Source: Enterobacter phage CC31
Sequence record: NC_014662.1
DNA length: 64,000 nucleotides
Direction: 5' to 3' (one strand)
Shown one piece after another: positions 7,147 through 7,910 of this stretch. The notes under the pieces were generated by a model. It made no database searches. It was given only the letters and a program-made list of their open reading frames with translations, and was not told the origin of the DNA. The position numbers were made by a program, and so were the translations under genes. Position 1 is the first letter of the stretch; every line of letters begins with the position of its first letter.

Positions 7147-7455
7147 CTATTTTATTCCGCGCGATGCAATTGTGTTCTGTCGTTTAACACCAGTTTGTTT
7201 AAAGTCATGATTGTCGATTTGATCAGTACGAGCAACGCCAAATGATGATTTGATCTTAGCTTTAGAGCCTTTAGTTATAGAAACAAACATCTCAGAAGAG
7301 CCTTTCTTAAAGTCCGAGGCGGATACTTCAACGCCGTTCTTAGCAAGTGACTTCAGAATTGCCTCTGCATACTCATCATCAAGACTTGCTTGAGTATTAA
7401 TGACGAATGTCTTTGGCGCAGTAGCTTCGTTGATAAATTCTTGATAGGTTTTCAT
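7147..7455 (-). CDS. Internal protein (IPI-like) with capsid-targeting N-terminus
   Basis: Starts [11 protein letters not shown] (T4 internal-protein targeting sequence); sits upstream of 57B as T4 ipI does. Confidence 0.7.
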
Positions 7456-7910
7456 TTAAGGTCTTCTGCCCAATCTAGTTTAAGTGGTTCTTTGTATTCA
7501 CGGTCCAGTACAACTGGTATCTGAACTTCACCCTTGAATGATAAAGGACCTACGTTATAAGACAACGTAATGTGAGGAGTGTAGTCAGGAAAATCATGCG
7601 TTGCACCTAATGCACGAGCATAACGATGTCGATGCTTAAGATATTCAGAATCTAGCACCAACACAAGTACTGGTGATTCTCCATGGTCCCAAACCTCAAG
7701 ATGTCCTTTACGAGCGACCTCAAAGCTACCTGACGAGCATGTATAAGGTACATTTACTCTTGAATAGCAAATCGTTGAGTGAATTTTGTGTCTAGGAACT
7801 GGATTAGGAACCTTCAACTCTCGCTGAAGGCTCTCAATAGCATCCAATGTTAAATCGGAGAATTTAGCTGCAACGTATAATCCAGAACCGAGGTCCTGGA
7901 AATTAATCAT
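7452..7910 (-). CDS. 57B: gp57B / Acb1-like 2H phosphodiesterase (anti-CBASS)
   Basis: 152 aa as T4 gp57B; two H-x-T/S motifs (HSTICYS, HITLSY); position between ipI and 57A. Confidence 0.75.

Follow-up and report, generated by a model that had tools for sequence, protein, structure and literature searches.

The question raised by the minus-strand reading frame at 7452-7910 of the window (the whole 64-kb stretch of DNA analysed here) is whether the gene at the position of T4 57B specifies an enzyme that destroys the cyclic nucleotide signals of CBASS defence, or some other type of 2H phosphoesterase. T4 gene 57B was identified as Acb1, both biochemically and genetically, by Hobbs et al. 2022 (PMC9117128), and the original prediction for this locus was that its product, gp57B, is an Acb1-like anti-CBASS 2H phosphodiesterase. 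Tests of its sequence and of its predicted structure support that proposal. The favored reading, with a probability of about 0.93, is that 7452-7910 encodes the Karamvirus ortholog of T4 Acb1, i.e. a small, single-domain, metal-independent 2H phosphodiesterase, with its activity assigned by analogy. What the locus itself displays in favor of this reading is an open reading frame, family membership, conservation of key residues, fold, synteny and purifying selection.

In the ORF list of the 64-kb window, an ATG-initiated frame of 152 aa fills the interval exactly. An ORF of that length at the 57B position had been anticipated, without mention of its strand, which is minus. The features within it that are needed for what follows are:

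7452..7910, minus strand: acb1 (gene 57B) coding sequence, 152 aa plus a TGA stop, from the ORF call, PF23474, T4 NP_049750, PDB 7T26 and UniRef
7773..7781, minus strand: first catalytic H-x-T, H44-S45-T46, codons CAC TCA ACG, from the sequence, a residue check and 31 homologs
7566..7574, minus strand: second catalytic H-x-T, H113-I114-T115, codons CAC ATT ACG, from the sequence, a residue check and 31 homologs
7455..7478, minus strand: C-terminal lid with the sequence LDWAEDLK (residues 145-152), in which W147 stacks on a base, from the T4 alignment, homologs and pLDDT

The strings HSTICYS and HITLSY, on which the expectation had been built, are both present and carry, respectively, H44-S45-T46 and H113-I114-T115. 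Two H-x-T/S motifs are nevertheless weak evidence for Acb1 when taken alone, and at the sequence level it is homology that is decisive. Since 5 of the 39 ATG-initiated ORFs of 100-250 aa in the 64-kb window have at least two occurrences of H-x-[TS], the loose motif does not discriminate. With the more demanding pattern of two H-x-T-[ILVM] spaced 50-90 aa apart, the gene 57B ORF is the sole carrier in the same set.

The homology is extensive. A Pfam search gave a match to the Acb1 family, PF23474, of 197.4 bits (E=1.2e-58; profile positions 2-144 of 144) where the curated cut-off is 27 bits, and the same family is present in all 71 of the 71 database homologs of the protein. T4 gp57B (NP_049750.1, from NC_000866) is 80% identical over all 152 residues with no gaps, and Acb1 of Erwinia phage FBB1 is 62% identical. 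FBB1 Acb1 (7T26/7T27) is also the best match in a sequence search of the PDB, at E=3.7e-59, the next best being the divergent phosphodiesterase of Burkholderia phage BCSR5 (9Q2G/9Q2Y) at E=1.4e-05. UniRef lists an identical sequence under the name ‘Anti-CBASS protein Acb1’ (Karamvirus), the identical protein was found on 94 contigs in a public protein collection, and Erwinia phage COW86c labels its identical copy ‘Acb1-like anti-CBASS protein’. NCBIfam yielded no match for Acb1 or for either internal protein dealt with below, which is uninformative as that library is aimed at bacterial and archaeal proteins. By these sequence comparisons acb1 of this phage is an ordinary, already catalogued copy of T4 Acb1 (gp57B), and in that sense already known.

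Homology of this extent leaves the matter of whether the residues that make Acb1 what it is are retained. In T4 Acb1 the HxT/HxT active-site tetrad comprises H44, T46, H113 and T115; the aromatics that stack on the bases are Y12, W74, F107 and W147; and E141 contacts N6 of adenine, which explains why Acb1 substrates must contain at least one adenosine (PMC9117128). Residues 145-152 form a C-terminal lid that, in the FBB1 and T4 enzymes, closes over the ligand and is needed for activity (PMC9117128). All nine of the nine published residues (Y12, H44, T46, W74, F107, H113, T115, E141 and W147) are present in the window protein at T4 numbering, and its lid, LDWAEDLK, has seven of eight residues the same as T4. 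Across 31 aligned family members, the most divergent of them at 34% identity, G10, Y12, H44, T46, H113 and E141 are invariant and T115, F107 and W147 are conserved at 90% or above; throughout the Acb1 family, position 74 is occupied by W or F. Loss of the catalytic histidines on alignment, the outcome that had been named in advance as counting against Acb1, was thus not encountered; H44 and H113 both align and both belong to the invariant set.

The predicted structure is in agreement. An AlphaFold2 model built on the 31-member alignment has a pLDDT of 88.5 and a pTM of 0.82, with low confidence confined to the first 7 residues and to the C-terminal lid; the pLDDT of the latter, 45-70, is consistent with a mobile lid. 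When the model was compared to known structures with Foldseek, the top matches were 7T26/7T27 (E=2e-19, TM 0.87/0.96, rmsd 1.1-1.2 Å), followed at some distance by the BCSR5 phosphodiesterase with a TM of about 0.68 and by LigT-type 2H enzymes with TM 0.45-0.56, rmsd 6-8 Å and 14-17% identity. As modeled, the window protein has the compact 2H phosphoesterase fold of Acb1 type.

What such a protein would do in the infected cell has to be read largely from its relatives, and catalysis, substrate range, timing of expression and anti-CBASS phenotype are here carried over from T4 and FBB1 by homology. T4 Acb1 cleaves 3'3'-cGAMP, cUA, cAAA and cAAG but not cGG, and for both the T4 and FBB1 enzymes cleavage is metal-independent, occurs 3' of adenosine and proceeds via a cyclic-phosphate intermediate (PMC9117128). 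T4 Acb1 also prevents CapV, Cap5 and the Enterobacter cloacae Cap4 nuclease from being activated, cAAG being the activating signal for this Cap4 that T4 Acb1 blocks in vitro (PMC9117128). In T4, 57B is dispensable when CBASS is not present and is depleted under CBASS; its expression is mainly in the middle and late phases. By analogy, the protein specified by 7452-7910 would be synthesized in the cell following infection rather than being injected, probably from a transcript of the overlapping block of genes to be described. Its U-shaped pocket would capture the cyclic di- and trinucleotides that host CD-NTases synthesize, with their bases stacking on Y12, W74, F107 and W147, the N6 of an adenine being read by E141, and the C-terminal lid (145-152) shutting over the ligand. 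The adenosine would then be strained such that its own 2'-OH attacks the 3'-5' bond, with catalysis by H44, T46, H113 and T115 and without a metal, and ring opening would yield, by way of a 2',3'-cyclic phosphate intermediate, a linear product with a 3'-phosphate. Removal of 3'3'-cGAMP, cUA, cAAA and cAAG in this way would keep CBASS effectors off and allow the phage cycle to be completed. One such effector may be the Cap4 nuclease of Enterobacter cloacae, a recorded host of the closest phages, and the block of that nuclease by T4 Acb1 fits those host records.

Whether the gene is set in the expected context, and how it might be expressed, can be considered from its immediate surroundings:

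7907..8161, minus strand: gene 57A, tail-fibre chaperone, upstream of acb1 (Pfam GP57, E=2.9e-07; phrog_1002, E=3.6e-26)
8158..8886, minus strand: gene 1 (dNMP kinase), first of the overlapping 1-57A-57B-internal protein block (Pfam DNMK, E=1.6e-95)
7147..7455, minus strand: internal head protein, Ip7-like, 102 aa, downstream of acb1 (phrog_2667 ‘internal head protein’, E=1.8e-42)
10868..10875, minus strand: T4 late-promoter consensus TATAAATA, the nearest match on the upstream side of acb1, preceding gene 4, from a consensus search

The order 4-2-3-1-57A-57B-internal protein-trna.4-tRNAs is common to the window, T4, PG7, COW86c and FBB1, and related phages annotate the gene downstream of acb1 as ‘Ip7 protein’ or ‘internal head protein’. 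The TGA stop of 57A and the ATG of acb1 share a 4-nt ATGA, as do the TGA stop of acb1 and the ATG of the internal-protein gene; from their coordinates, genes 1 and 57A likewise overlap by 4 nt (ATGA). The presence of ATGA overlaps at these three junctions suggests, as far as sequence can, that 1-57A-57B-internal protein is one transcription unit with translational coupling. The TATAAATA consensus has 18 matches in the window where 3.9 are expected, and read-through transcription into acb1 from the putative late promoter at 10868-10875 is possible. A search for sigma-70-like sites gave 7 where 13 were expected from shuffles, with no convincing one between 7910 and 10868 on the minus strand, and no match to a MotA box occurs in the same interval between 57B and gene 4. 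As no promoter was identified directly upstream of acb1, the timing of its expression is borrowed from T4. (Matches to the TATAAATA late promoter and MotA-box-like middle-promoter matches are present at 5908-5937, 6385-6392 and 6692-6716, all on the minus strand; these promoter-like matches, within 5908-6716, stand downstream of the internal-protein gene and precede small ORFs and the tRNA cluster.) The Acb1 protein is without the MKTYxEF capsid-targeting N-terminus that is seen on the neighbouring internal protein, and for this reason it is presumably made after infection and not injected.

Several different roles for the protein merit weighing against this background. One is enshrined in the databases, namely that it is a 2'-5' RNA ligase of LigT/ThpR type, or an RNA 2',3'-cyclic phosphodiesterase, acting on RNA ends in, e.g., tRNA repair. 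phrog_755 is described as ‘RNA ligase’, which is also the RefSeq name for T4 57B and for PG7 gp281; the 2H fold is common to LigT structures; and a tRNA cluster lies 1.3 kb from acb1. There is, in addition, a weak Pfam match to 2_5_RNA_ligase2 (PF13563, E=0.0088), but at 16.5 bits it is below the cut-off of 27 and covers residues 70-123 only, whereas the Acb1 profile scores 197 bits. Superposition on LigT gives a TM of ~0.45-0.55 and rmsd of 6-8 Å against TM 0.87-0.96 and 1.1 Å for Acb1, and the features specific for cyclic oligonucleotides, that is the four stacking aromatics, E141 and the C-terminal lid, are all kept. With T4 gp57B itself shown to cleave CBASS signals (PMC9117128), action on RNA ends is extremely unlikely, and the name ‘RNA ligase’ is a legacy annotation at the level of fold. 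The shared gene number recalls an older notion in which gp57B partners gp57A in tail-fibre assembly. That the gene overlaps 57A in an ATGA, with the translational coupling this suggests, would suit it, as would the retention of the 57A-57B pair in T4, PG7, COW86c and FBB1. However, the gp57B model shows an entire enzyme fold whose active site is intact, no similarity to chaperones was found, and in T4, 57B is non-essential on hosts that have no CBASS and delta-acb1 phage is viable, making a part in tail-fibre assembly barely worth entertaining.

A subtler type of alternative accepts an Acb1-type enzyme and differs on what it is for. The main selective target might be, instead of CBASS, the cA3 of type III CRISPR, other effectors dependent on cAAA, or 2'3'-c-di-AMP. 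T4 Acb1 is among the most promiscuous of viral 2H phosphodiesterases; as well as cAAA it degrades 2'3'-c-di-AMP, at a rate comparable to that for 3'3'-cGAMP, and the stacking contacts that are independent of base identity are all kept in the window protein. Against this, degradation of 2'3'-c-di-AMP is a liability, since over-expressed T4 Acb1 sets off the Panoptes system, and the genetic evidence published for the T4 ortholog links it with CBASS. The Acb1 pocket reportedly does not accommodate the larger rings that are frequent in type III CRISPR, and E. cloacae is the source of the characterized cAAG-Cap4 CBASS that Acb1 neutralizes in vitro (PMC9117128). A principal target outside CBASS is on these grounds very unlikely. 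Closer to the favored reading is the idea that the substrate preference of Karamvirus Acb1 is shifted from that of T4, e.g. tuned to the cAAG of E. cloacae CdnD-Cap4 CBASS, or discriminating against 2'3'-c-di-AMP, the Panoptes decoy. Specificity in the 2H phosphodiesterase fold is set by subtle differences in the core, and the cause of such a shift would be core substitutions, e.g. those of the divergent 75-81 loop after W74. Because 30 of the 152 residues differ, including that loop, the substrate range could differ in detail from T4; an actual shift of preference of either type is unlikely. An anti-CBASS Acb1 of broadly T4 character continues to be the reading of choice.

The wider neighbourhood had been portrayed as one rich in takeover functions, with 57B beside two internal-protein genes and Alt. 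Of this, one internal-protein gene, that at 7147-7455, does abut acb1, and the rest does not stand. The probable second internal-protein gene is 6.7 kb off, next to the e lysozyme gene, and the Alt-like gene is 47 kb off:

452-742, minus strand: 96-aa ORF with an MKTYxEF N-terminus like that of the 7147-7455 protein (phrog_27873, a family of unknown function)
55174-57348, minus strand: Alt-like RNA polymerase ADP-ribosyltransferase, 724 aa (phrog_802, E=8e-255; Pfam ADPrib_exo_Tox)

The product of 452-742 is probably, to judge from its N-terminus, a second internal head protein. Its ORF comes directly after gene e, where T4 has ipIII/ipII, and the ORF list also has a longer, TTG-started form of it, 452-775, that overlaps e. 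As in T4, a DNA ligase gene (57579-59063) directly adjoins Alt on its higher-coordinate side.

Over positions 6000-9000 the window shares 99.8% identity with PG7 as well as with several phages of Enterobacter cloacae, which places it in Karamvirus, the T4-like group to which Enterobacter phage PG7 belongs; its closest relatives among phages are recorded from Enterobacter and Klebsiella hosts. Gene e and 57B are ~6.2 kb apart in the window as against ~14.6 kb in PG7, and there are 8 tRNA genes (5064-6110) as against 20 annotated in PG7. By this comparison the window comes from a Karamvirus whose tRNA region is shorter than that of PG7. No collinear record for window positions 1-9000 was present in the phage collection searched, and 4600-5064 had no megablast match there. 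One of the tRNA genes, at 6026-6110 (minus strand; Rfam 39 bits), is tRNA-Tyr in PG7 and COW86c and was missed by ARAGORN. Between nudE and the tRNA cluster is a 305-aa ORF at 3713-4630 (minus strand), with DUF7277 N-terminal and DUF7275 C-terminal (phrog_2141, E=1.6e-139).

Selection on the gene has been conservative. The Acb1 protein is 100% identical in PG7, COW86c, KMB17 and KMB20. The acb1 nucleotide sequence of the window is identical to the PG7 copy, and it differs from those of COW86c, KMB17 and KMB20 by 10 synonymous and 0 non-synonymous changes in total. With a dN/dS of about 0.10 relative to T4, these sequence comparisons indicate that acb1 is under purifying selection. Natural loss of the gene in Enterobacter phages KMB17 and KMB20, considered when members of 70-80 aa were noticed in the protein cluster, was rejected: both genomes retain the whole 152-aa ORF undamaged and its product is 100% identical, so the short proteins are an artefact of gene calling and not a sign of pseudogenes. 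(GenBank has acb1 as a 70-aa ‘hypothetical protein’ at KMB17 locus 1933-2391 and KMB20 locus 1956-2414.) More generally, many records in GenBank, RefSeq and PHROG name the product ‘RNA ligase’ or ‘hypothetical protein’. Fragments and copies of the protein have also been deposited under Listeria monocytogenes, Streptococcus pyogenes, Escherichia coli and Enterococcus faecalis, on contigs of 222-3075 bp, and copies in bacterial assemblies on contigs so short look like phage contamination.

As the biochemistry, crystal structures and genetics of Acb1 are already published, little is added here to knowledge of the enzyme, and the practical value is in annotation, namely the correct name for a gene still mislabelled in many records. 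That a Karamvirus lineage infecting Enterobacter and Klebsiella carries an anti-CBASS enzyme is of relevance to the choice of therapeutic phages against hosts with CBASS. PG7 also has, at its locus 6057-6338, a homolog of the T4 Vs.4/Acb2 cyclic-nucleotide sponge (61% identity, E=1e-36); it is outside the window, ~2.7 kb left of the PG7 sequence that matches the window start. The Karamvirus lineage, judging by these homologies, probably carries both anti-CBASS proteins, Acb1 and Acb2.

The system to which the locus is closest is T4 itself. T4 Acb1 has the same length of 152 aa, the same numbering of catalytic and ligand residues and the same position between 57A and an internal-protein gene. 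The 30 substitutions that distinguish the two proteins are mostly in the disordered N-terminus (2-9), at 57-58 and 67-68, in the 75-81 loop and at 92-96. T4 has 73 nt between ipI and 57B, whereas in the window the internal-protein gene overlaps acb1 by 4 nt, and the internal protein concerned, Ip7-like in the window, is of a different type from that of T4. The hosts also differ, being Enterobacter and Klebsiella for the closest phages of the window and E. coli for T4. FBB1 Acb1, whose structures were solved as the apo form (7T26) and with 3'3'-cGAMP (7T27), has the HxT/HxT tetrad, Y12, equivalents of E141 and W147 and the C-terminal lid as in the window protein. It differs in having F at 74 where the window protein has W, Y at the equivalent of 107 where the window protein has F, one extra residue inserted after position 80, and a C-terminal tail unlike that of the window protein.

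More distant is the BCSR5 phosphodiesterase (2H PDE-9; 9Q2G/9Q2Y), whose 2H fold is of the same structural group and which also cleaves 3'3'-cGAMP. It has ~21% identity to the window protein in a match that ends at residue 119, and its lid, of ~15 residues, is N-terminal, in contrast to the T4-type C-terminal lid with W147 of the window protein. It mostly avoids 2'3'-c-di-AMP and so does not trigger Panoptes. On its sequence features the window protein lies outside the clade of viral 2H phosphodiesterases with an N-terminal lid that BCSR5 PDE-9 typifies. Further away still are LigT/ThpR proteins, e.g. E. coli LigT (PDB 5LDI), which belong to the same 2H phosphoesterase superfamily and have two H-x-T/S motifs, but are larger (about 170-185 aa) and have neither the aromatic cage nor the C-terminal lid of Acb1; from the structural models, what they have in common with the window protein is the superfamily fold only.
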